DNA of 64,000 nt from Candidatus Poribacteria bacterium (GCA_965205015.1 OZ242029.1:1024001-1088000); one strand, 5' to 3'; shown: positions 1 through 21,156, counted from the first letter of the stretch. The notes: generated from the letters alone by a model not told the origin. Numbers and translations: made by a program.

Positions 1-1382
1 ACAGAAACTCGCTGATTCGCCTCCGGCAAAGCCGCTTGCCATCCGGCGTGCAGTCGCTCGCTGAGATGTGAGACGAGCTCAGCGTTTTCGGGAAGATCCA
101 CGATATTAACGGTTTCATCCGGGTCGGCATCGTAGTCGTAAAGTTCTCGTCCTCTTTTTCCATCACGTCCCCACTCAGTGTATCGATACTGCATCGTCCG
201 CATGGACCAGCCGCTTCCACCACGCTGGCTGAAAGCAGCAGTTTTCCATGGACGTGTCGGTTGCTCGATGACAGGCATCAGACTTAAACCCTCTAACGCT
301 GAAGGCACGAGCAGCCCACACGCTTCACATAACGTTGGATAGATATCAACCAACTCAGCAAGCGCATCGGTTCGACTCGGTTGTTGCCCTGGAACACTGA
401 TGATCATCGGAGAACGGAGCCCAACTTCAAAAAGCGTATTCTTACGCCAAGTCCCATGCTCCCCGAGATGAAAACCGTGATCGCCACAGAAAACGACAAC
501 CGTATCTTTAGTTAGCCCAAGTGAGTCGAGTTGATTTAGGACGCGTCCGACTTGCGCATCCATATAACTTGTGGACGCGGCGTACGCCCGAATTAATTCT
601 AAAGTTTTCTCTTCAGAAATCGGGACATCACCGGAAGGGATATCTGAATAGAGCCTAAATAGATTTATACTGTTACGTGCCACAACCGGAGAATTTTTGG
701 GATAGTCAGAAGTAACCGGCAAGTCAAAGGTTTGTGTATTGTATAAATCGTAATACTTGCGCGGTGCGTGGAAGGGCAAGTGTGGCTTATCAAAACCAAC
801 AGCTAAAAAAAATCGCTGGTTTTTAATATCCGCCAAAATTCCCTCTGTCTCCTTCGCAGTCTGACCATCGGTGAATGCATCGTCTGGAACGTCAAGCGCT
901 TTCCACGATGGGCCCGGAATGAAAGCCTCCCAAGCATGATCTACCTTACCAACAGAGTGTGTAGTGTAACCGTTCTCATTAAAATATTGGCGCAAGCCCA
1001 CGACATCAGGTAATATCTCCCGAAAATCCCCAGCGTTACCCAAAATACCCGTCGTCTGGGGCCGCAAGCCAGTCAGTAGAGACGTTCGAGAAGGGTTACA
1101 GAGTGGCACTTGGCAATAAGCACGATTGAAGAGAATCCCTCGCTCCGCGAGCCGGTCAATGTTAGGTGTATGTATTTCTGGATGACCATAACATCCAAGC
1201 AAAGGACGCAGGTCATCAACAATGATGAATAACACATTGTATTGTCCCTGTGCATTCACACGGCGTTTCGGTAAAAGTCCCGTCGTAAAGGCAGCCGCCC
1301 CCGCTTTCAAACCTGTTGAGAGGAAGTTCCGCCGCGTAAATCGTCCGGAGAACGCGTGCTTCTGCTTCACATCTTTTATCAT
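1..1382 (-). CDS. Tat-exported formylglycine-dependent sulfatase (iduronate-2-sulfatase/choline-sulfatase-like), copy A; 3' end runs off the window
   Basis: Not in the ORF track because its stop is outside the window. ATG at 1382 reads MIKDVKQKHAFSGRFTRRNFLS..., then DDLRP, CNPSR (CxPxR), GKVDH, KPHLPF, DHGFHLGEH; start matches the 1392..3443 paralog. Confidence 0.93.
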   Translation of the reverse strand, partial: MIKDVKQKHAFSGRFTRRNFLSTGLKAGAAAFTTGLLPKRRVNAQGQYNVLFIIVDDLRPLLGCYGHPEIHTPNIDRLAERGILFNRAYCQVPLCNPSRTSLLTGLRPQTTGILGNAGDFREILPDVVGLRQYFNENGYTTHSVGKVDHAWEAFIPGPSWKALDVPDDAFTDGQTAKETEGILADIKNQRFFLAVGFDKPHLPFHAPRKYYDLYNTQTFDLPVTSDYPKNSPVVARNSINLFRLYSDIPSGDVPISEEKTLELIRAYAASTSYMDAQVGRVLNQLDSLGLTKDTVVVFCGDHGFHLGEHGTWRKNTLFEVGLRSPMIISVPGQQPSRTDALAELVDIYPTLCEACGLLVPSALEGLSLMPVIEQPTRPWKTAAFSQRGGSGWSMRTMQYRYTEWGRDGKRGRELYDYDADPDETVNIVDLPENAELVSHLSERLHAGWQAALPEANQRVS

Positions 1383-1670
1383 CTGATCTCCTTATTTTAC
1401 AATTACCATACGTCGCGTAGCATTCACCCCTCCTGCGCGAAGTGTGTATAAATAGACACCACTCGCAACGGGTTCTCCAACAGCATTCCGACCATCCCAA
1501 TACGCCGCACGCGATCGAGTCCGATAGGTCCCAGCACCTTGAAATCCGAGTGATAACCGACGAATAGATTCACCTTCTACATTATAGATGTCAATCTCAA
1601 CATCCGAATCTTCCGCCAAATCGTACGGAATCCACGTCTCAGGATTAAATGGATTCGGATAGTTCGCCAG
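1230..1670. repeat. ~440-bp near-identical direct repeat, copy 1 (sulfatase B/A junction)
   Basis: Matches 3291..3731 at offset 2061 with only scattered substitutions; covers the C-terminal domain of one gene, the spacer and the signal peptide of the next. Confidence 0.9.
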
Positions 1671-3443
1671 AAGCACCGTTTCCGTGGGGATTGCCGTATT
1701 TATGAGATGTTCTAAGGCAGCAATGCCCTGCTGAAAAGCAAAAGAACCATCATTCGCAAGATGTGCTTCAGTGAGCCACTGTTCCACTAAGTCAAAATGC
1801 TCCGTACTCATAGTGGGGCGCGTCGACGGAGTAGCAGGAACGCTGGATTCACCGAAATGCCCAGCAACCAGAATCAAGTCAAGAATGTTAACTTTACCAT
1901 CCTTATTCACGTCAACTTTCGGGTGTGCCGGCGTTTCCTCACCAATACTGCTTGAAATTAGGACGAGATCCCGGATATCAACGACCCCATCGTTATTTAT
2001 ATCCCAAGGTAACGCTTGTGAGATAGGTATTTGTTGGTGCCCGTCCGGCAAAGCCGCCTTCCACCCAGCGCGAAGCTGCGCGCTGAGATGTGCGACGAAT
2101 TCTGCGTTTTCTGGTAGGTTCGCGATATTGACCGTCTCACCTGGATCCGTTTGATGATCGTAAAGTTCTTTACCGAGCCATGCATTTTCTCCCCATTCGG
2201 TATATCTGTATTGCTCCGTTCGCATCGAGCGTTTTCCATTCTTCTTTCCAACTTCGCTGAAGGCAGCGGACTTCCATGAAGTCGTCGGATTTTTTATAAC
2301 CGGAACCATACTAATCCCTTCTACCTGTGAAGGCGTAGGAAGTTGACATGCATCACATAACGTCGGAAAAATATCAACAAGTTCTACTAATGCATCCGTT
2401 TTGGCACCAAGATGTTTCTGACCTGGAATACTCACAATCAGGGGTGACCTAAGTGCAACTTCATACACGGTTCTCTTCCCCCACGTTTCATGCTCTCCCA
2501 GATGGAACCCGTGGTCGCCACAGAAAGCAATAACTGTATTTTCAGTTAGCCCAAGCAAGTCGAGTTGATTTAGGACGCGTCCGACTTGAGCATCTACATA
2601 ACTTGTGGACGCGGCATACGCCCGAATTAATTCTAAAGTTTTCTCTTCAGAGAGTGGAACATTTCCGGGGGGTATATCTGAATATGCTTTTATTTCATGT
2701 TTAGCGTGCGGAATTACGTGTGGAACGTCATTGGTAATTGGGGAATCATACAATTCATAATATTTTGTTGGAGCGTTGAAAGGCATATGTGGTTTGTAAA
2801 ATCCGAGCGTCAGAAAAAATGGCTGCTCCTTAACCGCCTCTAAAACTTTGATTGCATGATTCGCAATTTCTCCATCCTCCAGCTGATCGTCGGCAACATC
2901 AAACGCTTGCCAAGATGGACGCCCCTCATAAGGCCGCCACTTCGGCCACCAAATCGGAACGCTCCAAGAAAGTCTATCATTGCGTGCCTTAAGTCCATGG
3001 TCAACTTTACCGATTGAGCGGGTATGGTAACCGTGGGCTTTGAAATGCTGTGGTAACGTCACAGCATCAGGTACAGTCTGTCGAAAATCCGCGTAATTAT
3101 CCCGGACCCCGCTTGTCGTCGGACGCAACCCCGTCAGCATAGATGCCCGAGAAGGATTACAAACCGGAAATTGGCAATAAGCACGGTTGAAAAGCGTGCT
3201 GCGCTCAGCAAGCCGGTCAATATGGGGGGTATGCATCTCAGGATGTCCATAACATCCTAAAAGGGGACGCAGGTCATCTATAATGATAAATAACACATTG
3301 TATTGTCCCTGCGCATTCACACGGCGTTTCGGTAAAAGTCCCGTCGTAAAGGCAGCCGCCCCCGCTTTTAAACCTGTTGAGAGGAAGTTTCGACGCGTAA
3401 ATCGTCCGGAGAACGCGTGCTTCTGCTTCACATCTTTTATCAT
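1392..3443 (-). CDS. Tat-exported sulfatase, copy B, with dockerin-like EF-hand pair and FlgD/T9SS-CTD-like C-terminal domain
   Basis: TRRNFL Tat motif; CNPSR; DHGFHLGEH; WDINNDGVVDIRDL and DVNKDGKVNILDL repeats; NYPNPFNPETWIPY...GVYLYTL tail. Confidence 0.95.
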   Translation of the reverse strand: MIKDVKQKHAFSGRFTRRNFLSTGLKAGAAAFTTGLLPKRRVNAQGQYNVLFIIIDDLRPLLGCYGHPEMHTPHIDRLAERSTLFNRAYCQFPVCNPSRASMLTGLRPTTSGVRDNYADFRQTVPDAVTLPQHFKAHGYHTRSIGKVDHGLKARNDRLSWSVPIWWPKWRPYEGRPSWQAFDVADDQLEDGEIANHAIKVLEAVKEQPFFLTLGFYKPHMPFNAPTKYYELYDSPITNDVPHVIPHAKHEIKAYSDIPPGNVPLSEEKTLELIRAYAASTSYVDAQVGRVLNQLDLLGLTENTVIAFCGDHGFHLGEHETWGKRTVYEVALRSPLIVSIPGQKHLGAKTDALVELVDIFPTLCDACQLPTPSQVEGISMVPVIKNPTTSWKSAAFSEVGKKNGKRSMRTEQYRYTEWGENAWLGKELYDHQTDPGETVNIANLPENAEFVAHLSAQLRAGWKAALPDGHQQIPISQALPWDINNDGVVDIRDLVLISSSIGEETPAHPKVDVNKDGKVNILDLILVAGHFGESSVPATPSTRPTMSTEHFDLVEQWLTEAHLANDGSFAFQQGIAALEHLINTAIPTETVLLANYPNPFNPETWIPYDLAEDSDVEIDIYNVEGESIRRLSLGFQGAGTYRTRSRAAYWDGRNAVGEPVASGVYLYTLRAGGVNATRRMVIVK

Positions 3444-3731
3444 CTGATCTCCTTATCTTACAATCACCATACGTCGCGTAGCATTCACCCCTCCTGCGCG
3501 AAGTGTGTATAAATAGACACCACTCGCAACAGGTTCACCGACAGCATTCCGACCATCCCAATACGCCGCACGCGACCGAGTCCGATAGGTCCCAGCACTT
3601 TGAAATCCGAGCGATAACCGACGGATAGATTCACCTTCTACATTATAGATGTCAATCTCAACATCCGAATCTTCCGCCAAATCGTACGGAATCCACGTCT
3701 CAGGATTAAATGGATTCGGATAGTTCGTCAG
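3291..3731. repeat. ~440-bp near-identical direct repeat, copy 2 (sulfatase C/B junction)
   Basis: Aligns by eye with 1230..1670. Confidence 0.9.
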
Positions 3732-5537
3732 GAGCACCGTTTCCAGCGGCACTACAGAATTGATGAGGCCTTCCAAGGCAGCAATGCCTTTCTGAAAATC
3801 AAGAGAACCGTCATTCGAGAGACGCGCTTCAGTCAGCCACTGTTCCACTAAGTTAAAATGCTCCGTACTCATAGTGGCGCGTGTTGACGGAGTAGCAGGA
3901 ACACTGGATTCGCCAAAATGCACAACAACCAACAGCAGGTCAAGAATGTCAATTTCACCATCTTTGTTCACATCAACTTTCGGGTGTGTTGGCGTTTCCG
4001 CACCAAAATTGTTTGAAACCAGAACGAGATCCCGGACATCAATGACTCCATCGTCATTTACATCCCAAGGTAATGTACGCGGAACAGAAACTCGCTGATT
4101 CGCTTCCGGTAAAGCCGCTTGCCACCCAGCGTGCAGCTGCTCGCTGAGATGTGAGACGAGTTCTGCATTTTCCGGTAAAGCCGCGATATTGACAGTCTCG
4201 CCTGGGTCAGTCTCATAATCGTAAAGTTCTACGCCACGGCGGCCGTTTTGTCCCCATTCGGTGTATCGGTACCGCCGCGTACGCATGGAGTGACCATGTA
4301 TATTACTGCCTCTCTCGAGTTGACTAAACGCTGCGGCCTTCCATGGATATGTCGGTTGTTCAATAACAGGCACCATACTAATACCTTCTAACTCTGTTGG
4401 AATAGGTAATTGACACATATCACACAAAGTCGGATAGATGTCAACAAGTTCAACAAGAGCATTGGTTTTAGTATTAGGGGAGGTTTGACCCGGTACGCTA
4501 ACTATCAGTGGTGAACGTACAGAATCTTCAAACAAAGTATTTTTTCTCCAGAGCCCGTGTTCACCCAGATGAAATCCATGGTCTCCCCAGAAAACCACGA
4601 CTGTGTTTTCCGTGAGCCCCAGCGTATCTAATTGATTGAGGACTTGGCCCACCTGGGCATCAACGTAACTTGTCGTTGCCGCATACGCCCGAATTAACTC
4701 TGAAGTTTTCTCGTCATCAAATGGCGGATACTTTGAGATATCTTGATACGCTTTTAATCCCTTAGGATTGGAAGCTATCTCCGGAGCGTCTTGGGGAAGA
4801 CTGGAATCAACAGGAGCAGTAAAGGTTTGAGGCGGATATAGATCAAAATATTTGCTTGGGGCGTAGAAGGGCAAATGCGGTTTGTTGAAACCGACGGCAA
4901 GGAAAAATTCTCGATCCTTAATCTCCTCTAAAACTTCCACTGCTGCATTTGCGATCCTGCCATCTTCTAATTCACTATCAGCAACATCAAGCGCTTGCCA
5001 CGATGGATTCATTGTTTTATCAATAGGTCTCCAAAACTCTCTCCAAATTGGATCACTCCAAGAAAGTTGGTCCAATAAGGCGTTAGGACCGTGCGTGATT
5101 TTACCGACAGACCGTGTATGATAGCCGTGAGCTTTGAAATGTTGTGGCAACGTTACAACTTCCGGTACTGTATTACGAAAATACGCGAAATTATCATATA
5201 CACCCGCTGTATCGGGTCTGAGACCGGTAAGAACAGAAGCCCGTGAGGGATTGCAAACCGGGAATTGGCAATAAGCACGGTTGAAGAGTGTACCCCTCTC
5301 GGCTAAAGCATCAATGTTGGGGGTGTGCATCTCTGGATAGCCGTAGCATCCAAGTAGCGGTCGTAAATCATCAATAGCGATGAACAAAACATTATATTTC
5401 CCTTGGGCACTCGTTTTTCGATTCGGTAGAAGTCCAGTTGCAAAAGCAGCCGCGCTTGTCTTCAAACTCGTTGAAACAAACTCCCGCCGAGTAAATCGCC
5501 GGGAGACTACTTTTTCATGCTTCATATCTTTTATCAT
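3453..5537 (-). CDS. Tat-exported sulfatase, copy C, same architecture
   Basis: TRREFV Tat motif; CNPSR; DHGFHLGEH; dockerin-like repeats; YPNPFN tail. Confidence 0.95.
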   Translation of the reverse strand: MIKDMKHEKVVSRRFTRREFVSTSLKTSAAAFATGLLPNRKTSAQGKYNVLFIAIDDLRPLLGCYGYPEMHTPNIDALAERGTLFNRAYCQFPVCNPSRASVLTGLRPDTAGVYDNFAYFRNTVPEVVTLPQHFKAHGYHTRSVGKITHGPNALLDQLSWSDPIWREFWRPIDKTMNPSWQALDVADSELEDGRIANAAVEVLEEIKDREFFLAVGFNKPHLPFYAPSKYFDLYPPQTFTAPVDSSLPQDAPEIASNPKGLKAYQDISKYPPFDDEKTSELIRAYAATTSYVDAQVGQVLNQLDTLGLTENTVVVFWGDHGFHLGEHGLWRKNTLFEDSVRSPLIVSVPGQTSPNTKTNALVELVDIYPTLCDMCQLPIPTELEGISMVPVIEQPTYPWKAAAFSQLERGSNIHGHSMRTRRYRYTEWGQNGRRGVELYDYETDPGETVNIAALPENAELVSHLSEQLHAGWQAALPEANQRVSVPRTLPWDVNDDGVIDVRDLVLVSNNFGAETPTHPKVDVNKDGEIDILDLLLVVVHFGESSVPATPSTRATMSTEHFNLVEQWLTEARLSNDGSLDFQKGIAALEGLINSVVPLETVLLTNYPNPFNPETWIPYDLAEDSDVEIDIYNVEGESIRRLSLGFQSAGTYRTRSRAAYWDGRNAVGEPVASGVYLYTLRAGGVNATRRMVIVR

Positions 5538-5546
5538 TTGTTCCCC

Positions 5547-7619
5547 CTACTTCAAAATCACCATTTGACGTGTAGCTTTGACCTGACCCACCTGAAGCGT
5601 GTAGAAATAGACACCGCTTGCCACAGGTTCACCCTCAGTATTACGACCATCCCAATACGCAGCTCGCGATTGATCCCGATAAGTGCCAGCAACCTGGAAA
5701 CCGATCGATAACTGCCGGACAGATTCACCGCTCAGATTATAGATTTGGATATCAACATCTGAGTCTTCCGCCAAATCATAAGGTATCCATGTTTCTGGGT
5801 TAAAAGGGTTAGGATAGTTCGGCAAAAGAACTGTTTCCGTTGGCAGAGCAGCGTCAACTAATTCCTCTAAGGCCGCGATACCCTTACGAAAAATAGAAGA
5901 ACCATCATTTGCGAGACGGGCATCAATGAGCCACCGCTTCACCAAGTCAAGATGTTTTGTATCAATATCGACGTGTGTCGGCGGGGCAGCAGGATTACCC
6001 GATTCACCCAAATGGGCAGCAACCAGAAGCAAGTCAATGATATCAACACTGCCATCTTGATTTACATCAGCCTTCGGATGTTTTGGTGCTGCCGCGCCAA
6101 GACTGTTTGATATAAGGACAAGGTCAAGGATATTAACAATACCATCGTCGTTAACATCCCACGGTAGCGTCGATGGAACAGCGAATGGTTTTTGGGTATC
6201 AGGTAAAATTATCTGCCAATGATCATAGAGTTTCTTCCTGAGATATGCGACCAGGTCCTTATTTTTAGGCAGATAGGCAACGTTAACTGTCCCATCCGGG
6301 TCTACATGATAATTGTAAAGTTCGCGCCCAGCGTCTGCATCGATTTGCCACCGGGACCTCTCTTCAGTATATCGGTACTGATCGGTACGAACAGAACGCC
6401 GATCTACCGACAAAGACCTTGTCTGGCTATATACCTCTGTTTTCCAAGCACGTGTGGGCTGATTAATTACAGGAATCATGCTAACACCTTCTAATCGCGT
6501 TGGGATAGGAAGGTGACACGCTTCACACAAAGTCGGATAAAGGTCAACAAGTTCTACAAGTGCATCTGCTTTACTACCGAGTTTCCCAGGGACATTAACA
6601 ATTAATGGAACACGGAGAGACTCCTCAAAAAGGGTATCCTTACCCCACATCCCATGTTCTCCAAGATGATAACCGTGGTCACTACAAAAAATGACGACTG
6701 TCCTGTCAGTTAGTCCCAGCACATCAAGATGATTGAGAACACGCCCGACTTGGGCATCCATGTAACTTAGCGCTGCTAAGTATCCGAGCACTAACTCTAA
6801 AACCTTCTCTTCAGAGAGCGGAGTACCATCCGAGGGTATACCAGAATAGTGTGTTATCTCATGTCGAAATGGCAGAAATATGGCCGGGCGAGTTTTGAAA
6901 GTATGTGTATCGTATAAATCGAAATATTTCTTAGGAACACTATACGGCAAATGCGGCTTGTCGAACCCAACAGCGAGAAAAAACGGTAAATCTTGAACTT
7001 CATCTAAAACCTTTATTGTCTGTTCCGCGGTTTTACCATCCCTGAGTTCGTCGTCAGCAACGTCAAGTGCTTGCCAAGCAGGAATCCCTTTATAAGGGCG
7101 TCCGCTTGGTCTCCAACTCGGCACACTCCAAGAAAGTTCATCGGATAGATCTGCAGAACCGTGTTCAATTTTACCAACAGACCGGGTGTGGTAACCGTGG
7201 ACTTTGAAATATTGTGGTAACGTCACAGCATCAGGCACTGTTTGTCGAAAGCCTACATGATTATCTCGGACACCATTTGTGTCCGGACGCAATCCAGTCA
7301 GCATAGATGTCCGGGAAGGGTTACAAAGTGGGTATTGACAATAGGCACGGTTGAAAAGCGTGCTCCGCTCGGCGAACCGGTCAATATTAGGCGTATGTAT
7401 TTCCGGATGACCATAACACCCAAGCAAAGGTCGCAAGTCATCCGCAATGATAAATAACACATTGTACTGTTCATCGGAAACAGCGTAGGGTTTAGGCAAC
7501 AAACCTGTTGTGAAAGCGGCAGTCCCTACTTTCAAACTGGTTGAGAGGAAATCCCGCCGTGTTAAAAGACGTATTGTTGGAGAGTGTCTTCGCGCTTGTC
7601 TAACCGGATCTTTGTGCAT
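5547..7619 (-). CDS. Tat-exported sulfatase, copy D, same architecture
   Basis: TRRDFL Tat motif; CNPSR; DHGYHLGEH; dockerin-like repeats; YPNPFN tail. Start placed at ATG 7619 (MHKDP) rather than 7667 so the Tat motif is near the N-terminus; start uncertain. Confidence 0.93.
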   Translation of the reverse strand: MHKDPVRQARRHSPTIRLLTRRDFLSTSLKVGTAAFTTGLLPKPYAVSDEQYNVLFIIADDLRPLLGCYGHPEIHTPNIDRFAERSTLFNRAYCQYPLCNPSRTSMLTGLRPDTNGVRDNHVGFRQTVPDAVTLPQYFKVHGYHTRSVGKIEHGSADLSDELSWSVPSWRPSGRPYKGIPAWQALDVADDELRDGKTAEQTIKVLDEVQDLPFFLAVGFDKPHLPYSVPKKYFDLYDTHTFKTRPAIFLPFRHEITHYSGIPSDGTPLSEEKVLELVLGYLAALSYMDAQVGRVLNHLDVLGLTDRTVVIFCSDHGYHLGEHGMWGKDTLFEESLRVPLIVNVPGKLGSKADALVELVDLYPTLCEACHLPIPTRLEGVSMIPVINQPTRAWKTEVYSQTRSLSVDRRSVRTDQYRYTEERSRWQIDADAGRELYNYHVDPDGTVNVAYLPKNKDLVAYLRKKLYDHWQIILPDTQKPFAVPSTLPWDVNDDGIVNILDLVLISNSLGAAAPKHPKADVNQDGSVDIIDLLLVAAHLGESGNPAAPPTHVDIDTKHLDLVKRWLIDARLANDGSSIFRKGIAALEELVDAALPTETVLLPNYPNPFNPETWIPYDLAEDSDVDIQIYNLSGESVRQLSIGFQVAGTYRDQSRAAYWDGRNTEGEPVASGVYFYTLQVGQVKATRQMVILK

Positions 7620-7690
7620 TATATGAATGAATTCAATCTTTAATAATAGGCAAGACATGCGTCTCACCCATACGGAATTTAAACGTCTAT

Positions 7691-8695: not shown

Positions 8696-8710
8696 TTATA
8701 GTTGTCAGTT

Positions 8711-10119: not shown

Positions 10120-10136
10120 AGGCTGACGGCTATAGA

Positions 10137-13210: not shown

Positions 13211-14124
13211 GAAGAAAGATCTCTGCCTAATAACTCAGCCAATTGCTCGTTAAATGGCTTAAAATACGCCCTCTGGCGTTCGCGTGTTTTCGGGTCCAGC
13301 GGAGGTGGCGTTGAATCTGTATCGCTCTTCGGAGACCTGTCGTTCCAATCCAGAACGGCTTTTCTCAACTTGTAAGCGGTGGCATCCGGCAGAAATTTCC
13401 GAATGACTCTTCTCAGCGGATTGTGAGATGCCAGAAATTGTGTAAAGAGAAAGTTGAATTTTTCATAACGTGGCAGCGTGGCTTGGTTATGCCGTTCACC
13501 TATCGTCGGACTGAAATCGGCAGAGACCCCCATACGATCAAAGAGTTGCTGACAGACCGCCTCAGCGTTATCCTTTAAATCATCCGTTAAGACGCACTGC
13601 ACGTGATTGGTGCCAAATTGGGTTATCAAATTCTTGACATGCGGATAATAGATGCCGTTGTATTGATAAGCACATTGTCGCCATTTAAACCAGTCTTCGT
13701 TCAGGCGGGCTTCCTCGGCAACAAGTGCCTCCTCATAAGTTTTGATGTTCTCCCAACCTCTCCGTCGAGCCCACCAATAGGCAGAATAAGCACGCGCTAC
13801 AGGTTCCCGTAGGAGAACAACAAGGTGTATCTGCGGATTGTGTTCATAAATCCGTTGCATGACTTCCGGTGAATGCATCACCATTACATTCTTAGCGATA
13901 AGAGACTTATCCTCAATTTCGCTGCGGGTATTCTCTCCAATAAAGTACTTCGCAAAAGCCCACTCATATCCGCGCGTGTATTCACGCCCCTGCAGGAAGA
14001 ACGTCATTTCCGGTTGTGCATGCGTGTGGATATCCGGATGCTGTGCCAAGTAGCGGAGAAGCGAAGAGGTTCCCGCTTTCTGTGCGCCAACAATCATCAA
14101 CTGGATTTTCCGCAAGTTTTCCAT
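13198..14124 (-). CDS. Sulfotransferase of the Sulfotransfer_1 type (heparan-sulfate sulfotransferase-like motifs)
   Basis: IVGAQKAGTSSL; LAQHP; LLREPVARAYSAY; G.Y..H. Confidence 0.9.
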   Translation of the reverse strand: MENLRKIQLMIVGAQKAGTSSLLRYLAQHPDIHTHAQPEMTFFLQGREYTRGYEWAFAKYFIGENTRSEIEDKSLIAKNVMVMHSPEVMQRIYEHNPQIHLVVLLREPVARAYSAYWWARRRGWENIKTYEEALVAEEARLNEDWFKWRQCAYQYNGIYYPHVKNLITQFGTNHVQCVLTDDLKDNAEAVCQQLFDRMGVSADFSPTIGERHNQATLPRYEKFNFLFTQFLASHNPLRRVIRKFLPDATAYKLRKAVLDWNDRSPKSDTDSTPPPLDPKTRERQRAYFKPFNEQLAELLGRDLSSWNL

Positions 14125-15077
14125 GGTATGGGTTTCCCAATCAATTCGCCGAGTGCTCGAACATCCGACGCGTAATAATCAATTAAACGGTGCTTCGTTT
14201 CTTCTGACATCTGAGGCCTCTCATCCGCCCGTGTGTTCAACCGGAGATAGAGCGGCTCAATGGTGCGTTTGATTGCCCGCAACGGCATATGAATAACCGG
14301 CTTGTTATGCGTCCACTGGCGCAATTGAAACCGGAAGTCTCTATACTTTCGATGCAACTCAGAATTTCGCATCTGCTGGGTACGATTCGTTACTTTGAAG
14401 GCATAATCGGTAAAAAAACCGGCATCAATACCAGCGAAATCGCACAACTTTGCCAGAGTATCCGCCGGTTGTGCTGCAAGTTCCTCATAAAAGAGGATAT
14501 GGACACGCTCCGTACCGACTCGGTGAAAATAAGGCTCCAAATAGTTAGTATAACATCCTTGCTGGAGTGTTTGCAAGTGCTGCGCTTCTGTCTTTTCATG
14601 GCGATTCGTAGCAGCGAAAAGCAATTCAACATACGCGTCAAAACTCACAGTCTGTGGTAATTTGCCAATTTGCCTCGCAAACCGATACCAAGAGATTAAC
14701 CTGGAAATCGGCTCACGGAGACTGAACGCTAACTTTGCCTCCGGTAGCGATGTAGCGATTCTCTCACGGGCTTTCTCACAATACAGATAGTCGGGGGTCG
14801 ATTCCATCCGAAGCTGCGTTTCATCAGCATCAGGGAATAAAAGGTTGTACTCTTCGACATTCCCCGCCTGTTGATCTTCTCCATATCGATATTTTGAGGG
14901 AAGCGGATAGTCGCTGCTGAGAAAAAACCGAGTCTCCTTGTAGGTGGCAGCGCAAATAGCGGGATGATCCGCCAAGTAGGTGAACAAAGACGTTGTCGCC
15001 GCCTTTGTAGTGCCCCCTATGATGAGATAATGGTAATCCGCAACGTTTTTCGTTAAGGTCATTTTTCTTCTTTCCAC
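14097..15077 (-). CDS. Sulfotransferase of the Sulfotransfer_1 type (heparan-sulfate sulfotransferase-like motifs)
   Basis: IIGGTTKAATTSL; KETRFF; ESTPDY; LREPISRLISWY. True start may be ATG 15062. Confidence 0.9.
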   Translation of the reverse strand: MERRKMTLTKNVADYHYLIIGGTTKAATTSLFTYLADHPAICAATYKETRFFLSSDYPLPSKYRYGEDQQAGNVEEYNLLFPDADETQLRMESTPDYLYCEKARERIATSLPEAKLAFSLREPISRLISWYRFARQIGKLPQTVSFDAYVELLFAATNRHEKTEAQHLQTLQQGCYTNYLEPYFHRVGTERVHILFYEELAAQPADTLAKLCDFAGIDAGFFTDYAFKVTNRTQQMRNSELHRKYRDFRFQLRQWTHNKPVIHMPLRAIKRTIEPLYLRLNTRADERPQMSEETKHRLIDYYASDVRALGELIGKPIPWKTCGKSS

Positions 15078-15088
15078 CTAACACACGA

Positions 15089-15327
15089 CATGTAGGGGCA
15101 GGTCTTGTACCTGCCCAAACCAGAAACCACCACATCAGCATGTAGGGACAGGTCTTGTACCTGCCCAAACCAGAAACCACCACATCAGCATGTAGGGGCA
15201 GGTCTTGTACCTGCCCAAACCAGAAACCACCACATCAGCATGTAGGGACAGGTCTTGTACCTGCCCAAACCAGAAACCACCACATCAGCATGTAGGGGCA
15301 GGTCTTGTACCTGCCCAAACCAGAAAC
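15089..15327. repeat. Tandem array of five 50-bp units (last one partial), each with a GTAG REP hairpin
   Basis: Unit CATGTAGGG(G/A)CAGGTCTTGTACCTGCCCAAACCAGAAACCACCACATCAG starts at 15089, 15139, 15189, 15239, 15289; the variant base alternates G-A-G-A-G. Confidence 0.95.
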
Positions 15328-15333
15328 TGCTAA

Positions 15334-16707
15334 TTAGAACCAAGACACCCGCGTCCTTCGCAGGAGATACGTCAGGTTCCCAACAGATAGAAGGGCAGTA
15401 ATTGCTACAGATAACGCGACAGACAAAAGCCACCAGGTTTCGATTAACCCGTACGCCAACAGAAAATTGAGAATTGCCATTGTCACCATATTTGTGAAAA
15501 TAGCGCGGTATGCCCTTTGCGCGTAAAGTCCGGCATTCAGCACAGGTATCAGACAAGAAAATATCATTCCCGTGCTGAGCCAAAAGAGGAGTTGCCCTAT
15601 CAATTCAATTGACGTCTGATCGATTGTCCCTCTCCCATACAAGAGTGAACTGATCCTTCCGTGAAATATCAGCAAGACCAAGGTTACCGGAAATCCGATA
15701 ATTATAGCCGCACGTGCGTTTCGGTTGAGGCTACGCCCTAATTCCGCTTTATCGCCTGTCGCGTCGTGCTCGGTGGTCCCGTGATCACGATCATCGTGAT
15801 TTGACCCGAAACTCGTGCTTTGCTGCCTTGTATTGGCGTTGAGTTTCGGATTAAGTGCTACGGCTGTCGCCATCTCGGGTAAGCCAGTTGTTGCGATACT
15901 GATACCGATGAGTGTCTGCAGCGCTGAAAAGATTTGGAAGGCAGACTTATAGAGTGTGATAGCCCCACTTCCAAGTTGTGAAACAAGGTACACCTCAACC
16001 AGCAAGCGGTTTACGATTTGTCGTATCCCGAAGCCGAGCGTCGGAAGAGCAACCGTGTTTTTCAAAGAACGCAGCGTGTCCACAGAAACGCCCGTGAATT
16101 CATATCGATGTCCTATTCGATATGCTCCGATGCCCAACCACCCAAAGTAAGCAATAAAGCCGCCAGTGTATGCCATCGCCACCCAGTTTTCAAGGCGCTG
16201 TGTATTCCATAGGAGCAAAAATATAAACGCTGCAGTGCCAGCAGGTAAGGCGTTTCGGAGTGCCACCGTCTTGAAATGTCGCTGGCTATTCAGGAAAGCC
16301 CCCAGTACCGTGCTACCACATCCGAAGATAAGGAGAGGGGCGCAAAATCGCAACAGTGTGGTAACTCTCTGGACATCAACAGTTGATTTCCATAACAACC
16401 CACCTGCTATCCACGGCGCGAGCAGCTCAATCAGAATGAAAACTCCGAAGCCAATACTGAGCAACAAAATTAGGAGGCTATTCGTGAAACGTTGGTATTC
16501 GGTGCGTGTCATCTCCTTCCCGTTTGCGACAAAGACCGGAACGAGACTAAATTTGGCACCTTCCCGGACAACCGTATCTACTAACAGCACGACTGTTAAC
16601 GCCACAATGAGCGCATCGGCGGTATCGCTGAATCCGAAGCGTTTTGGAATCAATAGGACCCGGACGAGCAGACTCAACCCCATTCCAGCAAGGGTAATCA
16701 GCATCAC
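15334..16707 (-). CDS. MurJ/MviN-family (MOP superfamily) lipid-linked oligosaccharide flippase
   Basis: FG...DA, EGA...LVPVF, LN.QRHF, L.GISIAT..LP, LYGRG, LYA motifs; many TM helices. Start uncertain. Confidence 0.8.
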   Translation of the reverse strand: MMLITLAGMGLSLLVRVLLIPKRFGFSDTADALIVALTVVLLVDTVVREGAKFSLVPVFVANGKEMTRTEYQRFTNSLLILLLSIGFGVFILIELLAPWIAGGLLWKSTVDVQRVTTLLRFCAPLLIFGCGSTVLGAFLNSQRHFKTVALRNALPAGTAAFIFLLLWNTQRLENWVAMAYTGGFIAYFGWLGIGAYRIGHRYEFTGVSVDTLRSLKNTVALPTLGFGIRQIVNRLLVEVYLVSQLGSGAITLYKSAFQIFSALQTLIGISIATTGLPEMATAVALNPKLNANTRQQSTSFGSNHDDRDHGTTEHDATGDKAELGRSLNRNARAAIIIGFPVTLVLLIFHGRISSLLYGRGTIDQTSIELIGQLLFWLSTGMIFSCLIPVLNAGLYAQRAYRAIFTNMVTMAILNFLLAYGLIETWWLLSVALSVAITALLSVGNLTYLLRRTRVSWF

Positions 16708-16720
16708 CCAAAACGTTTTT

Positions 16721-16908
16721 TTAATTTTTCCTTGCGGAGGAACGACGCGCGTTAGAACTTTAGCGTGCGTTTCTTAAATCCGCCCTCCATTTCATTACGG
16801 GCTACAGCTTACCCAATTCAGAAGCCTGCAACAACGGCGCAGGCGGCTGGACGCAACGGAACCTTTCATTCATCCAATTCACCTGACCGAACGGCAAGGT
16901 AAAATTAA
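16721..16908. mobile_element. Candidate ~190-bp MITE with 17-bp imperfect TIRs and an internal GTAG REP
   Basis: TTAATTTTTCCTTGCGG (16721-16737) versus the reverse complement of 16892-16908, TTAATTTTACCTTGCCG (15/17); internal CCCTCCATTTCATTACGGGCTAC; the same end motif recurs at 24804-24820. Confidence 0.6.
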
Positions 16909-17903
16909 GAATTCCAGGTTTCGGGTAGATTTTTGCGAATCTCAATGTCTGTAAACAGTGTGGAAGCCCGCGGTCCAACGGACTGTGCCCATGTTGCCAT
17001 TCTCTGTAAGCCCTCTGGAAGCGAGACTTCGGATGTCGTCCCAAAGACCTTTTGAAACTTCTCGTGTGTGCAATAGGCATGTTTCACCTCTTCTCTTGCA
17101 CGCACGTTGATAACAGAGACTTCCTTTCCCATCGCTGTCATCACCAAGTCTGCCAATTCGTTGACGGATACATGCTCGTCCGATCCGACGTTGAACACCT
17201 CTCCGGCTGCTTCGGGTATGTCAACGGCATGCGCGATGTGTGGAGCAACATCCGCAATATGCGTGAAGGCGCGCGTCTGCTCACCGTCCCCAAAGATAAC
17301 TAACGGTTCCCCCTGCATAATATTATTCATGAAAATGCCGATGACGTTTCGATACTTGTCCCCGATATTCTGGAGTTCACCGTAGACGTTGTGGGGACGG
17401 AAAATGGTATACTCCAAACCGAAAAGCCGCTTTGCGACAGCGAGTTCCTGTTCAACGGCATATTTAGCGATGCCGTAAGAATCCTCGGGCATAGGCGTGA
17501 GTGCCTCATGCATCGGAAGTTGGTTCGCACCGTAGACAGCGATGGAAGAGGTGAACACAAACCGCTTGACGTCGTGGTTCACCGCTGCATTGATGAGGTT
17601 TACACTGCCAATGAGGTTGTTCTGGTAGTTAAATCGTTTAATAAAGTGACTGAGCCCTTCCGCTGCATACGCGGCGAGATGATAGATATAGTCGAATTGG
17701 TATTGCTCACAGAGTTTATTTATGAGTTGCGCGTCAAGGATGCTTCCTTCAACAAAGGTTACGGCAGGATTGAGATTCTCACGGAAGCCGCCACTGAGGT
17801 CATCAAGTGCAACAACGTCTGTGTTACCTTGTTCGAGCAGTTCATTAACGACGTGCGCGCCCATAAAGCCCGCGCCACCTGTGACTAATGCTTTATTTTT
17901 CAT
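16905..17903 (-). CDS. NAD-dependent nucleotide-sugar epimerase/dehydratase (GalE-like SDR)
   Basis: VTGGAGFMG; HLAA; FTSS.AVYG; YGIAK (YxxxK); RPHNVYG; GDGEQTRAF. Confidence 0.93.
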   Translation of the reverse strand: MKNKALVTGGAGFMGAHVVNELLEQGNTDVVALDDLSGGFRENLNPAVTFVEGSILDAQLINKLCEQYQFDYIYHLAAYAAEGLSHFIKRFNYQNNLIGSVNLINAAVNHDVKRFVFTSSIAVYGANQLPMHEALTPMPEDSYGIAKYAVEQELAVAKRLFGLEYTIFRPHNVYGELQNIGDKYRNVIGIFMNNIMQGEPLVIFGDGEQTRAFTHIADVAPHIAHAVDIPEAAGEVFNVGSDEHVSVNELADLVMTAMGKEVSVINVRAREEVKHAYCTHEKFQKVFGTTSEVSLPEGLQRMATWAQSVGPRASTLFTDIEIRKNLPETWNS

Positions 17904-18044
17904 GTTTGGTTGGCACTATTCCTTATTATTTTAGTACTACGAGCCGTCTTGCCTGTTTGTACGTCGGCGTTTCTAACTCACAAATATAAACTCCATTCGC
18001 TACGTGCTCCCCTAATTCGTTCATAATGGGTAGCCATTAAAATG

Positions 18045-19247
18045 CTACAAAAATTGTTGGTAGACCTTCATAATTTTTTCATAGTGAACCTCGGCGTTAA
18101 ACTCTGTCTCCACCTTTTGGCGACCCATGCGCCCCATCTCAACAGCTTCGCTTTTATGCTCGAACATCCACAACAACCGTTCTTGTAGCGCGTCTTTTCC
18201 ACCCGCTGGAAAGAGAAATCCATCAACGCCATCTTCAATGATTTCGGGAATCCCACCGATATCAGCACCGATCGCTGGCTTGCCGTAGGCGTAAGATTCT
18301 AAAATAGACATCGGGCAGTTTTCGTACAGCTCGGAGGGCAAGACCATACAAATGCTATTCTGAATCAATTCTCGGAGCGCATCGCCCTGTTTAAAACCGA
18401 GCAGATGAATATGCTCACATTCATTTTCTTCAAGCATACGTTGGATTTCAGGCACCGCCTCACCATCCCCGACAATATAAAGCGGTACGTGTTTGAGTGG
18501 CATCGCTGCTTCTATCAACGTAAAAATTCCTTTAGCCCGATACAACCGCCCGAAATAGAGAAGATAGTCCCCGGTTTTGAAACTCGGCGTGATGTCGGAG
18601 ACATCAACAAAGTTGTGTACAGTTGATATTTTATGTTCAGGAATACCGTACGAGATCATTTTTTTTCGGTTGAAGTGACATACCGAGATGAAATGGTCAA
18701 ATTTGTTATGTGAACCCAGTATCCGAGAGAAATAAGATTCGGTAACGCTTAACGTAGTACGAGCGAGCGAGCCCTTATTGCACCGTTTCGGGAGTGCCCG
18801 CCAAAAGTGCTTACCAGCACAGGCTTCACAAATTTCATCGTTTGAGATATGACTATGAACTGGACACGTCAACTTAAAATCGTGTAACGTCTGAATGAGT
18901 GGGATCCCTGCTTTTTTGAACTCGTTCAAGATTGAGGCGGTCAGCTTACCGTAGTAGATGTGAAAATGTGCGAGGTCAATTTTTGTGTCCTTTAGTAACC
19001 GCCGAATTGCGTTAACAGCATCGTATGAATAGAGAAAGCGCAACAAGTCGCCTACCGCCGGCTGCTCAAAATTTGCGCCGCGCGGGAAATAGCGTTCCCA
19101 TTCAGACGACTCATTTTCAGGATTTGCTGCCGTAAACGGGATGACTCGGTGTCCATGCTTTCTTAACAACTCAGCGAGGACAAAAAAATAGCGATCAGAA
19201 CCGCCGCGGACATAATGATTTTGTGAGACATTCAGAATAGTGTGCAT
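18045..19247 (-). CDS. Glycosyltransferase family 4 (GT-B)
   Basis: GGSDRY; TLHD; FGRL...KG; PSELYENCPMSILE (Ex7E); IGGIPEII. Confidence 0.93.
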   Translation of the reverse strand: MHTILNVSQNHYVRGGSDRYFFVLAELLRKHGHRVIPFTAANPENESSEWERYFPRGANFEQPAVGDLLRFLYSYDAVNAIRRLLKDTKIDLAHFHIYYGKLTASILNEFKKAGIPLIQTLHDFKLTCPVHSHISNDEICEACAGKHFWRALPKRCNKGSLARTTLSVTESYFSRILGSHNKFDHFISVCHFNRKKMISYGIPEHKISTVHNFVDVSDITPSFKTGDYLLYFGRLYRAKGIFTLIEAAMPLKHVPLYIVGDGEAVPEIQRMLEENECEHIHLLGFKQGDALRELIQNSICMVLPSELYENCPMSILESYAYGKPAIGADIGGIPEIIEDGVDGFLFPAGGKDALQERLLWMFEHKSEAVEMGRMGRQKVETEFNAEVHYEKIMKVYQQFL

Positions 19248-19292
19248 ATTCTGCTAAGGTTGGTGTTATTGTTTTGATTTCAGTTTTTCCAT

Positions 19293-20045
19293 TTAGGTTC
19301 TGACAAACTGAGAATACACATCTCGGACCGTTTTAAAGCCAGGGAGCATATAGTCCGGACGTGCTTGCAATTCGAGCGGTGGATGGTTTTCTCCCAAAAC
19401 AGCCGAAGCCGTCGTTTCTGTATAGAATCCGCCATGGGTTAACTTTGCCAATTCTTTCACTTCAACAGCCTGGCCCGTCCCAACATCATAGGTGCCGATA
19501 ATATTTAAATTTTCAACATAGCGAACGGCACGAACCACATCCTCTACGTGGATATAGTCTCGGCGAAAGGGATAGAATACATAGCGAAGCGTCCGCTGCA
19601 TGAGTTTTTCAGGTACAGAATGGTTTTCAGGTGGACGATTGTCCTCAGCCCCATACACATTGTAGAGTCTTAAAATACAATACTTTTCATTGTTTACGCG
19701 GATGTAGTCCTCAGCGACCCGCTTGGACCATCCATAGTAGGATTTTGGAGAGATCGCTGTGCAAGAGGAAATAAAAATAAGAAAGGCGTTTTCGTGACGC
19801 GCCAGATCAGCAATTTGCTTTGTCGCTTCATAATTCCATTTAAAGATGTCAGGATCTTGATAGAGTGAATTGGCTATTGCACCGCAATGAATAATGGTTG
19901 TCGCTTGTTCTATTGAATCGCGTATTTCGGCAAATAATGTCTCCCATCGCTGAAAACATTGATTTTCATCAAGGGTTTTTGCCGAAGGGTACGCTTGGTG
20001 CAAGTGCCCACCAATATAACCTCTGTTCCCTGTTAGGAAAACCAT
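19293..20045 (-). CDS. Short NAD-dependent epimerase/dehydratase (SDR)
   Basis: LTGNRGYIG; HCGA; YGWSK; LRLYNVYG; RRDYIHVEDV; DVGTG. Confidence 0.85.
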   Translation of the reverse strand: MVFLTGNRGYIGGHLHQAYPSAKTLDENQCFQRWETLFAEIRDSIEQATTIIHCGAIANSLYQDPDIFKWNYEATKQIADLARHENAFLIFISSCTAISPKSYYGWSKRVAEDYIRVNNEKYCILRLYNVYGAEDNRPPENHSVPEKLMQRTLRYVFYPFRRDYIHVEDVVRAVRYVENLNIIGTYDVGTGQAVEVKELAKLTHGGFYTETTASAVLGENHPPLELQARPDYMLPGFKTVRDVYSQFVRT

Positions 20046-20152
20046 CTAAATCACCTCCCTACACAAAATAGGTATAATCTTTGCCTAAAACAGTGATGCG
20101 GGCGTGAAAACCTTCAGAAACTGTGGAAAAAACCCGCATGCAAGATGCCAAT

Positions 20153-20181
20153 ATTGTAACACACTGAACGAAAAATGTCAA
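20153..20181 (-). promoter_or_regulatory. Sigma70-type promoter heading the glycan/sulfatase gene run
   Basis: Minus strand TTGACA-17 bp-TACAAT, about 110 bp upstream of ATG 20045. Confidence 0.7.
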
Positions 20182-20274
20182 ATCTCAAATTACCTTGGAA
20201 TCCCCCTCAAGCCCACCAATATTCAGCAGATCAAGCCCTCTGCATTGCACCTATTTTAATCGCGGTAGGTAATC

Positions 20275-21156
20275 TTAAGTCAATAAAGCACTGACCCAAC
20301 TATTAAGCCGTTGCGGGATTGTTGTGAGCTGCGCGCGGAAAAGCGTCAAGTCAGCATCATCGGCAATCGGAACGGTTTTCAGCCGATAGGGGGCAGTCTT
20401 CTGCGTATTCCAACCTATATCCGTCGTACGCGCCGATCGGAACCCGGCTGTTTTCACGATCTCAATTTCGCGTTCGGTATAATCACCGTTCGGATAACTG
20501 AAATGGGAGCATTCAATCTCTAAAAGCTTCTCTAAATCCAGCTTGCTGCCAAGAATTTCTTGCCTACATTCCGTCTCTGTACAGTGTGTTAAAATCGGAT
20601 GGAACTGCGTATGCGGTTGAAAGTCAACGTCCGCTACCATCTTCTTCATTTCGGTGATATTCAGTGCCTGCCTGTCTGGATACCTCTTTTCTGGTTCAAA
20701 GTCAGTCGTATGCTTGAGGGACGCTAACCGCTCACCATTCGGCAGCCTTTTCAGTTTTTCTCTCTCCGCTTTGGACTGCCCTTCTATTTTGAACCAGAAA
20801 TGCCGATGCGTATCAACAATCTGTGTGCAAACAAAGAGTGTCGGACAAATACGGTACTGTGTGAAAAGGGGCAAGAGTTCGATATTACCGACGTGTCCAT
20901 CGTCGATGGTAATTACAACACTCTTTGCGGGTATCTGTGAGAAATCCTCCTGATAAATAGCAGCGACCAAGGTATCAAGTGAGATAACCGTATAATGGTG
21001 CGAGAGATAAGCAAGATGTTTAGCGAAAACAGCCGATTTCGCATCGTGATACATGAGGATAGCGACCCGGTTGCGGCAGAAGCACTCCCGAACGAGGATA
21101 TGTACGCCTAATAAACAGATGAGGGTTGCCACCATATTTTTAAGAAAATCACGCAT
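20275..21156 (-). CDS. Polysaccharide deacetylase (NodB/CE4, IcaB-like)
   Basis: ILMYH; VITIDDG; HTQFHP.L; FSYPNG; A.TT..G.N. Confidence 0.9.
   Translation of the reverse strand: MRDFLKNMVATLICLLGVHILVRECFCRNRVAILMYHDAKSAVFAKHLAYLSHHYTVISLDTLVAAIYQEDFSQIPAKSVVITIDDGHVGNIELLPLFTQYRICPTLFVCTQIVDTHRHFWFKIEGQSKAEREKLKRLPNGERLASLKHTTDFEPEKRYPDRQALNITEMKKMVADVDFQPHTQFHPILTHCTETECRQEILGSKLDLEKLLEIECSHFSYPNGDYTEREIEIVKTAGFRSARTTDIGWNTQKTAPYRLKTVPIADDADLTLFRAQLTTIPQRLNSWVSALLT

Follow-up and report, generated by a model that had tools for sequence, protein, structure and literature searches.

Does a bacterium write sulfate groups on the glycan of its own surface and then erase part of them after export, or do the sulfatases that it displays serve other substrates? 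This question is raised by a locus in a 64,000-nucleotide stretch of DNA from Candidatus Poribacteria bacterium (GCA_965205015.1 OZ242029.1:1024001-1088000), referred to below as the window, in which genes for glycan assembly, four sulfotransferases, a glycosidase and four exported sulfatases follow one another on the minus strand. Bacterial sulfated polysaccharides are barely documented outside cyanobacteria, and poribacterial sulfatases are read as tools for eating the sulfated matrix of the sponge host. The original prediction, made from the sequence alone, had proposed a glycosaminoglycan-like surface polymer that is built and edited by the same cell. The comparative analysis reported here points to a locus, conserved in sponge-associated Poribacteria and contained for the most part in the window, that very probably makes a sulfated glycan, namely a multiply sulfated surface polysaccharide assembled by the Wzx/Wzy repeat-unit route, and that harbours differentiated sulfatases. 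Genome-wide statements rest on the genomes of relatives, chiefly five complete ones. No published description of this Poribacteria locus was found in the open literature; subscription-only pangenome papers may mention it.

A fixed block of glycan genes

The genes named in the original prediction were all recovered, as open reading frames (ORFs) and by Pfam, co-oriented on the minus strand between positions 3 and 21156; every ORF of at least 240 residues within 1-26261 lies on that strand. In the direction of transcription, the conserved locus begins with a GT4 glycosyltransferase (18045-19247; Pfam), followed by Epi1, a short-chain dehydrogenase/reductase (SDR) of the NDP-sugar 4-epimerase type (16905-17903; PF01370, 1.2e-54), and a MOP-family (MurJ/Wzx-like) flippase (15334-16707; PF03023, 2.9e-36). 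Two Sulfotransfer_1 proteins come next, ST1b (14097-15077; Pfam, 4.5e-11) and the heparan 3-OST/NST-like ST1a (13198-14124; Pfam, 2.1e-9), and then the presumed polymerase, a polytopic membrane protein that resembles Wzy and O-antigen ligases (11813-13210), and a clan GH-A-like retaining glycosidase with a lipoprotein-like N-terminus (10137-11816), hereafter GH, recognised by a conserved pair of glutamates and by its model fold. Two Sulfotransfer_3 proteins, ST3b (8895-9902; PF13469, 6.1e-32), which is conserved in the loci of relatives, and ST3a (7691-8695; PF13469, 3.1e-25), precede the sulfatase genes. NCBIfam gave no equivalog-level name for any gene of the locus. A 132-residue ORF at 15185-15583, for which no Pfam family was found, was treated as spurious.

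Conservation was analysed in 80 loci from species-representative genomes, each with 10 kb of flank on either side, in which the window proteins were placed by tblastn. All seven genes from the flippase to ST3a were present in one order and on one strand in 64 of the 80 loci; four were short contigs with partial gene sets and 12 contained a GH homologue by itself (ten labelled Latescibacterota and two second copies in metagenome-assembled genomes of Poribacteria). The arrangement cannot be due to chance, because the succession of flippase, two sulfotransferases, Wzy-like protein, GH and two sulfotransferases recurs in each of the 64 loci with enough flank (64/64). The linkage supposed by the original prediction was thus found, the sulfotransferases, the Wzy-like protein and GH forming a fixed block in 64/64 loci and the sulfatases being embedded, between this block and the genes for Wzi, GT4 and initiating transferase, in 46/61. 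The GH homologues, among the best 120 of 265, are 72-97% identical and belong to Candidatus Poribacteria wherever a name is given. Across loci, identities of 71-92% for the Wzy-like protein, 78-92% for the epimerase and 60-88% for ST3a were obtained, which is unusually high for surface-polysaccharide genes. Of the 175 genomes of the phylum, 106 have ST1a; in all but one of these (105 genomes) it occupies a single place, and in the exception it was found as two fragments on small contigs. Because of this distribution, the locus characterises a large clade and not the phylum as a whole.

In the majority of the 64 loci, the flippase is preceded by Epi1. Three deep-branching loci that were examined carry, at this place, a kinase-like gene and a cytidylyltransferase (L053:3877-5270, L056:3751-5171 and L077:3641-5034; an FGGY_N-like protein of 331 residues and a cytidylyltransferase of 133-142 residues), which suggests that a different activated precursor is used in that clade.

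Genes beyond the left end of the window

One glycosyltransferase and no initiating transferase had been counted in the window, and this was raised as a caveat against a complete pathway. In relatives, ST3a and the sulfatases are followed by co-oriented genes which Pfam assigns to a Wzi-like protein (PF14052), a second GT4 (GT4b; DUF1972 and Glycos_transf_1), a Bac_transf protein and DUF983, and then by a convergent SDR gene. The apparent lack of a second glycosyltransferase and of an initiating transferase is an effect of the window edge, since both follow the array in relatives. The Bac_transf product is a small phosphoglycosyl transferase (PGT), matched by PF02397 at about 3e-63 directly past Wzi-GT4b in L011, L012, L036 and L079, and its gene was found by tblastn in the loci with a sufficiently long flank. 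Where the flank extends for 5 kb or more beyond ST3a (61 loci), Wzi lies past the sulfatases in 52 cases; the array fills the flank in eight of the other nine, and the remaining one, L032, is a rearrangement breakpoint with unrelated genes beyond. The downstream end, PGT-DUF983 and then the SDR, was the same in the three genomes fetched for it (3/3). In many loci, an ORF of 177 residues without Pfam family is conserved ahead of the array or of Wzi (for example L012:13840-14373 and L013:13857-14390); it is absent from the window.

The further caveat that the window holds no gene for the synthesis of 3'-phosphoadenosine 5'-phosphosulfate (PAPS) and no formylglycine-generating enzyme (FGE) was removed in the same manner. 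An adenosine 5'-phosphosulfate (APS) kinase match above cut-off and 14-18 FGE-family matches per genome were detected away from the locus in 5/5 complete relatives. Wza-like (Poly_export) matches, two per genome, are likewise located elsewhere in 5/5 relatives.

The sulfatase array

In agreement with the prediction of at least four exported sulfatases, four genes follow ST3a on the minus strand: sulfatases D (5547-7667), C (3453-5537), B (1392-3443) and A (3-1382), the last with its 3' end cut by the window edge. The true start of sulfatase D is likely the ATG at 7619. All four are matched by PF00884 (E-values from 2.6e-45 to 2.9e-49; 1.9e-47 for sulfatase A), have twin-arginine (Tat) leaders in their translations, such as FTRRNFLS, and contain the active-site motif CNPSR, which is found at residue 95 of sulfatase A. 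Judged from these catalytic motifs, sulfatase activity looks intact. The three complete proteins are built alike: the Tat leader is followed by the S1 catalytic domain, a dockerin and, at the C-terminus, a sorting domain, for which TIGR04183 gives 23.7 bits in sulfatase B, 23.9 bits and, in sulfatase D, 29.4 bits (cut-off 23).

The number of copies between ST3a and Wzi was counted in the 61 loci, as far as the flank shows. No copy was seen in 15 loci, one in 18, two in 12, three in 12 and four in 4, and the scan of the phylum revealed up to five sulfatase matches per genome. When sulfatase C served as the query against the five complete genomes, paralogues over the full length (60-77% identity) turned up at the locus only, in the three genomes with an array (3/5); the other two, whose slot is empty, lack an orthologue altogether (2/5). 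The next best match in the catalytic domain reaches 31-35% identity in any of the five genomes. A chance adjacency in a sulfatase-rich genome was thereby ruled out, the other sulfatases being at most 35% identical in this domain. In the phylum scan, where the sulfatase type was counted at E <= 1e-100 and the overlap with ST1a by hand, the type occurs in 92 of 175 genomes, of which all but four carry ST1a as well (88 of 92); among these exceptions, three have weak matches only (1e-102 to 1e-118). A break immediately behind ST3a divides the locus of G115, and the sulfatase has kept its place just ahead of Wzi-GT4b-PGT-DUF983; this genome has a further copy in the slot between GT4 and Epi1, as in L037.

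A tree of 92 catalytic domains revealed at least five well-supported paralogue groups, to each of which many genomes contribute. The tandem copies within a genome are spread over different groups and their order recurs, A-B-E in L015, L074 and L080 and A-D-B-E in L052. In transcription order, the window sulfatases belong to groups A (sulfatase D), B (sulfatase C), A (sulfatase B) and C (sulfatase A), with 59-68% identity in the catalytic part. Because of these separate groups, the recurring order and this level of identity, they are old and differentiated paralogues, and a recent tandem amplification was ruled out by the same identities and by their placement in old clades. Sulfatases A and B agree in every one of their 54 N-terminal residues, the leader among them (1392-1540 and 3-1382), although their catalytic domains are 68% identical, which suggests local gene conversion.

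The best solved relatives of sulfatase C are 6hhm (1e-91) and human iduronate-2-sulfatase (1.5e-61). From these PDB matches, the enzymes may tentatively be placed in SulfAtlas subfamily S1_7. The enzyme 6hhm acts on ulvan.

The glycosidase of the core

The hydrophobic N-terminus of GH ends in VIGC, a lipobox-like sequence, and 2571 cluster representatives match the protein at E <= 0.001. In an alignment of 50 sequences, RxPGG (R118, P120, G122), N188, E215, G217, E219, Y297, E342 and N484 are conserved. The pairs N218-E219 (NE) and T341-E342 (in TEW) are invariant or nearly so in the 50 relatives, and both glutamates, E219 and E342, are invariant. An Asn-Glu acid/base and a Thr-Glu-Trp nucleophile are typical of retaining enzymes of clan GH-A, to which GH is assigned. 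The AlphaFold (AF2) model (pLDDT 88.1) is a (beta/alpha)8 barrel; in a fold search with this model, GH51 arabinofuranosidases ranked best (1e-25, TM 0.6-0.7) and a GH79 beta-glucuronidase next (about 1e-18), and a sequence search of the PDB agrees with this ranking. Pfam holds no family of its own for GH, and GH79n was matched weakly in 5/50 relatives. An identity as GH79 heparanase or beta-glucuronidase was rejected, PF03662 reaching 16.3 bits for a cut-off of 23.1 and the fold being nearer to GH51. Of the GH-A lipoprotein originally proposed, the clan and the lipobox-like N-terminus were retained.

A copy of GH with 62-63% identity is present, without the other genes of the locus, in the ten loci labelled Latescibacterota (among L059-L068 and L070), whose carriers are most likely sponge-associated.

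Sulfotransferases, flippase and nucleotide-sugar enzymes

None of the four sulfotransferases has a signal peptide in its translation, and ST3a is taken to be cytoplasmic for this reason. The P-loop-like motifs for PAPS binding, 5'-PSB and 3'-PB, are readable in all four translations, and activity looks intact in these enzymes as it does in GH with its two invariant glutamates. The nearest PDB entry to ST1a is 3rnl (9.9e-31), from bacterial structural genomics, and then heparan sulfate 3-OST-1 (3.4e-16); ST1b shows a similar ranking, with a sulfotransferase from bacterial structural genomics ahead of heparan 3-OST/NST. The nearest solved enzymes to ST3a and ST3b are tyrosylprotein sulfotransferases and the CurM sulfotransferase, at about 1e-9 (about 3e-9 for ST3a with the tyrosylprotein enzyme). 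All NCBIfam matches of the sulfotransferases are far below cut-off.

The possibility that the flippase is the MurJ of peptidoglycan synthesis was ruled out by its score with TIGR01695 (120.9 bits; equivalog cut-off 235.55). Two epimerases had been announced, and two SDR genes are indeed present; they encode enzymes of nucleotide sugars and not epimerases that act on a polymer. Epi1 is UDP-hexose 4-epimerase-like, its nearest solved structure being the UDP-glucose 4-epimerase 4zrm (8.2e-51), and the other protein, a short SDR of 250 residues (19293-20045, minus strand; Pfam), is a lineage-specific accessory found in 1/5 complete relatives.

Promoter and transcripts

The promoter motif read in the original prediction is there on the minus strand (20181-20153), with TTGACA at 20181-20176, a spacer of 17 nucleotides and TACAAT at 20158-20153, in a gap of 229 bp between the CE4 gene and the short SDR. 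Promoter-like consensus matches are not enriched in positions 1-20000, where 21 were found for 28.3 expected from shuffled sequences, and TTGACA-17-TACAAT is here only a consensus match. It is located in sequence that most relatives lack; this sequence is lineage-specific because CE4 adjoins the locus in just 1/5 relatives. Promoter and terminator scans gave nothing decisive at the junction of ST3a and the sulfatases.

In one sponge metatranscriptome, available as contigs, pieces of about 330-540 nucleotides, about 92-96% alike, fall on ST3a, ST3b, GH, ST1a, the flippase, the short SDR with the promoter gap, and CE4. No listed piece joins ST3a to the first sulfatase, bearing in mind that contigs cannot show transcript ends and that the library may contain DNA. 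The piece 19750-20232, which crosses the promoter motif, derives from a relative and proves nothing.

Proteins with dockerin and sorting tail

The C-terminal 200 residues of the sulfatases, comprising dockerin and tail, are shared, at 45-55% identity, by dozens of further large proteins in each genome, most of them encoded away from the locus. In the genomes G001, G002, G004, G005 and G006, at least 40 places per genome have the sorting-tail end, and 6-21 cohesin-domain matches per genome were counted (5/5 genomes). Three PorU-like (C25 peptidase-type) proteins of 1700-2170 residues are encoded per genome, the best of them at 313.5 bits for a cut-off of 420 (5/5 below), and SprA_N is above cut-off in 0/5 genomes, so that a type IX machine is at most a candidate for handling the tail.

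The gap between GT4 and Epi1, which measures 141 bp in the window and holds no insert, is a second variable slot in relatives. Proteins of 866-895 residues with FG-GAP, ASPIC/UnbV and dockerin/tail are encoded there in the five loci inspected for them (L001:1228-3909, L002:1253-3859, L036:1660-4260, L053:1085-3772 and L077:862-3528), and leucine-rich repeat (LRR) proteins in L003, L052 and L056.

Neighbouring genes and other features of the window

A CE4 polysaccharide deacetylase (20275-21156, minus strand; Pfam, 8.9e-16) adjoins the locus in the window. The original prediction had noted it just upstream of the promoter; each of the 5/5 relatives has a single match, next to the locus in 1/5 and 0.5-4 Mb away in the other four, and the gene is a neighbour here, not a conserved member of the locus. 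Upstream of it lies an exported right-handed beta-helix (NosD/CASH-like) protein (21181-22194, minus strand; PF13229, 6.4e-9), a conserved neighbour whose gene stands between Pnkp and GT4 in 5/5 complete relatives, the frame Hen1-Pnkp-beta-helix-GT4 being found in 5/5 complete genomes. Directly upstream of the locus, Pnkp (855 residues; PNKP_ligase, 8.3e-179) and Hen1 (467 residues) form an RNA-repair pair at 22233-26261 (minus strand), whose adjacency to the locus is kept in 5/5 complete relatives; an archease gene is present at 38018-38494.

Farther along the window, a protein of 979 residues (47274-50213, minus strand) combines sigma-70 regions 2 and 4 of the ECF type with Sortilin/BNR-like repeats and is adjoined by a Sortilin/BNR protein of 694 residues (45001-47085, minus strand). 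Genes for PhyH (phytanoyl-CoA dioxygenase) are located at 53228-53953 (minus strand) and 58692-59402 (plus strand), and PhyH genes also lie beside sulfatases in L059, L099 and L100. The region 62001-64000, with a GC content of 0.40 where about 0.50 is found elsewhere, encodes a T5orf172/MUG113 domain protein (62632-63135) and may mark the border of a mobile element. Scans of the window for tRNA and Rfam families gave no match.

Proposed function of the locus and rival explanations

The content, order and conservation of the genes, the intact catalytic motifs and, in the genomes searched, the confinement of close sulfatase paralogues to the locus are established from sequence; we infer the chemistry of each step, and the substrate of the sulfatases, from the gene families. 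The small Bac_transf PGT would start a lipid-linked repeat unit and the two GT4 enzymes would lengthen it, to a trisaccharide if each transferase adds one sugar. On the cytoplasmic face, the four PAPS-type sulfotransferases would sulfate the unit up to four times, after which the MOP flippase would turn it over and the Wzy-like protein polymerise it. The Wzi-like outer-membrane protein may help to hold the polymer on the cell, and GH, anchored in the membrane on the periplasmic side, may trim or release chains. The sulfatases should be matured by an FGE homologue, which forms the formylglycine, exported in the folded state by means of the Tat leader and displayed outside through dockerin and sorting tail, where the different paralogues could take particular sulfates off the exported polymer or its fragments. 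To this reading as a whole, in which a sulfated polymer is built, its sulfation written inside the cell and partly erased outside, we give a probability of about 0.5. The manufacture of a sulfated glycan is by far its firmest part; that the sulfatases act on the polymer of the locus or on fragments of it after export is plausible, with a chance slightly under even.

Several observations weigh against such self-editing. The sulfatases are dispensable, as seen in the 15/61 loci without any, and 18/106 ST1a-positive genomes are devoid of this sulfatase type. In G156, the sole copy is 1.9 Mb from the locus, amid cohesin and LRR tail proteins. Two copies look decayed, that of L011 being a C-terminal fragment only and that of G002 being split with a stop. 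In L039 and L043, the place of the sulfatases is taken by LRR and LTD proteins that end in this dockerin and tail as well, and FG-GAP/ASPIC or LRR proteins with such a tail are encoded between GT4 and Epi1 in the loci examined, so that slot membership may reflect surface display or co-expression rather than membership in a pathway. It is because the slots hold displayed proteins in general that self-editing is not rated higher. The enzymes nearest to the sulfatases, 6hhm and iduronate-2-sulfatase, act on the ends of oligosaccharide chains, which suits catabolism better than the editing of a polymer. On the assembly side, the Wzy_C match of the presumed polymerase is below cut-off (26.6 bits, 5.7e-6, for 31.7) in a family that includes ligases too, and neither a chain-length regulator nor Wza was seen at the locus, no search directed at polysaccharide co-polymerases (PCP) having been made.

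Much of this evidence would fit displayed feeding enzymes: the sulfatases, and possibly GH, would then attack sulfated glycans of the sponge matrix or of seawater and occupy the locus merely as a well-expressed site, the coat itself being still sulfated. The LRR/LTD and FG-GAP/ASPIC proteins in the same slots, the dozens of proteins per genome that share the C-terminal 200 residues, the tail-protein island of G156 with its adjoining cohesin protein, the empty loci and the catabolic nature of the nearest solved enzymes are all in line with this explanation. So are two neighbourhoods outside the clade. In L059 of the Latescibacterota, the run 6352-12193 encodes PhyH, a leaderless Cys-type sulfatase, a sodium:solute symporter, GH with a Sec-type leader and a GNAT acetyltransferase, a setting that suggests a catabolic enzyme handling sulfated sugars and a transfer between symbiont phyla. 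Outgroup homologues of the sulfatases (44% identity, no dockerin or tail) also have a catabolic-looking neighbourhood, beside a pectate-lyase-like gene. Against the feeding explanation stand the restriction of sulfatases above about 35% catalytic-domain identity to the locus in five genomes, the co-occurrence of the type with ST1a (88/92 genomes), the sulfatase of G115 that remains with the Wzi-GT4b-PGT half when the locus is split, and the recurring order of old paralogues; moreover, no transporter or additional degradative enzyme lies alongside the array in the Poribacteria loci. We consider the feeding explanation somewhat less likely than self-editing.

The glycan could also be an anchor or matrix for proteins with the sorting domain, the variable slots holding genes of its cargo, sulfatases included. 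In Porphyromonas, the cargo of type IX secretion is attached to anionic lipopolysaccharide, and the exclusive presence of dockerin and tail proteins in both variable slots, the ligases in the Wzy_C family, the three large PorU-like proteins per genome and the cohesin proteins in 5/5 genomes are compatible with an arrangement of this kind. It is nevertheless improbable, given PorU-like scores below the curated cut-off in 5/5 genomes and SprA_N above cut-off in 0/5; moreover, the tail proteins are mostly encoded elsewhere, and it leaves unexplained why, in the genomes searched, close sulfatase copies are at the locus only. Very improbable, finally, is an action of the sulfotransferases on lipids, small molecules or protein tyrosines, by which the polymer would be unsulfated and nothing left for the sulfatases to edit. 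The affinity of ST3a and ST3b to tyrosylprotein and CurM sulfotransferases and the NCBIfam scores speak in its favour, whereas the four sulfotransferases interspersed, always in one order (64/64), among flippase, polymerase and GH, the carbohydrate enzymes nearest to ST1a and ST1b and, in the account given of synechan (PMC8205485), the sulfation of that polysaccharide by sulfotransferases of a similar cluster speak against it.

If the self-editing reading holds, the locus may be the first bacterial case of desulfation of a self-made polymer after export. One may go further and imagine a bacterial "sulfation code" on the cell's own coat, with four writers, at least five differentiated surface sulfatases as erasers and a trimming GH, which would tune a host-matrix-like appearance presented to sponge cells and form, on a Wzx/Wzy polymer, an independent functional analogue of heparan sulfate with its Sulf editing; we regard this extension as rather unlikely. 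In any event, the locus opens to experiment the question of how a symbiont that is abundant but uncultivated appears to its host, and the four bacterial carbohydrate-type sulfotransferases with matched sulfatases are possibly useful for the enzymatic tailoring of sulfated glycans.

Comparison with known systems

The original prediction rested on an analogy with animal heparan sulfate, which is produced and remodelled by NDST, C5-epimerase, OSTs, Sulf1/2 and heparanase. The resemblance lies in the several PAPS sulfotransferases that write and in the extracellular sulfatases and the clan GH-A glycosidase that may erase or trim; among named solved enzymes ST1a and ST1b are nearest to 3-OST/NST, and among named human enzymes the sulfatases are nearest to iduronate-2-sulfatase. 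They resemble in this the lysosomal chain-end enzyme and not the Sulf endosulfatases. The system may thus work like write-and-erase sulfation, but the locus is not a member of a glycosaminoglycan pathway, and the analogy was abandoned in that sense: its polymer would be made from a repeat unit on a lipid carrier, unlike the processive chain of HexNAc and uronic acid, it has no gene for a polymer C5-epimerase, uronic acid or a glycosaminoglycan synthase, Epi1 is like UDP-hexose 4-epimerases, the short SDR occurs in 1/5 relatives, ST3a and ST3b are nearest to tyrosylprotein and CurM sulfotransferases, CE4 is unlinked in 4/5 relatives and GH is nearer to GH51. Pfam scans of the window genes and of the neighbours examined revealed no gene for uronic acid, a glycosaminoglycan synthase or a UDP-sugar dehydrogenase (a genome-wide search for the dehydrogenase was not made), and the only transferases in these scans were GT4 and Bac_transf.

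With the S1 formylglycine sulfatases near 6hhm and iduronate-2-sulfatase, the Poribacteria set shares CNPSR and full-length matches of the catalytic domain; it differs from them by the combination of Tat leader, dockerin and sorting tail, by its place in a biosynthetic locus and by its division into at least five paralogue groups. Periplasmic or membrane-anchored hydrolases or lyases such as PslG, BcsZ, AlgL and PelA are encoded within the operons of exopolysaccharides that they can cleave, and PslG, too, combines the barrel of clan GH-A with a beta-sandwich domain. The Poribacteria GH differs from these enzymes in that its fold is nearest to GH51 and in its combination with sulfotransferases and sulfatases.

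Among bacteria that make sulfated polymers, Pontiella (Kiritimatiellota) is described as marine and sulfatase-rich, degrading as well as producing sulfated glycosaminoglycan-like exopolymers, and its authors state that prokaryotic glycosaminoglycan sulfotransferases had been unknown (PMC7356697). A putative biosynthetic cluster with sulfotransferase and GT2/GT4 genes is reported there, comparable to the Poribacteria locus. The cluster, as presented in the cited passages, has one sulfotransferase and no sulfatase or glycosidase described within it, and chemistry exists for its product, mostly N-sulfation (PMC7356697), whereas the Poribacteria locus is supported by strong comparative genomics.

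The closest parallel is the synechan (xss) cluster of Synechocystis PCC 6803, in which sulfotransferases lie within a Wzx/Wzy cluster; according to the authors, no other exopolysaccharide cluster of bacteria was known to contain such enzymes (PMC8205485). Both systems have sulfotransferases of PF00685/PF13469 and several glycosyltransferases, one of them a priming enzyme, and in both a gene of the type for outer-membrane export lies away from the cluster; from the figures in the cited text, the Poribacteria locus has four sulfotransferases versus two and three transferases versus eight (PMC8205485). The cited passages place neither a sulfatase nor a glycosidase in the xss cluster (PMC8205485). 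Relative to the cluster so described, the Poribacteria locus adds a core glycosidase, a Wzi-like protein and embedded exported sulfatases, and its host is an uncultivated sponge symbiont instead of a cyanobacterium. What appears to be new, judged from the open literature, is a probable Wzx/Wzy sulfated-polysaccharide cluster with an embedded module of differentiated sulfatases, whose close copies are at the locus only in the five genomes searched.

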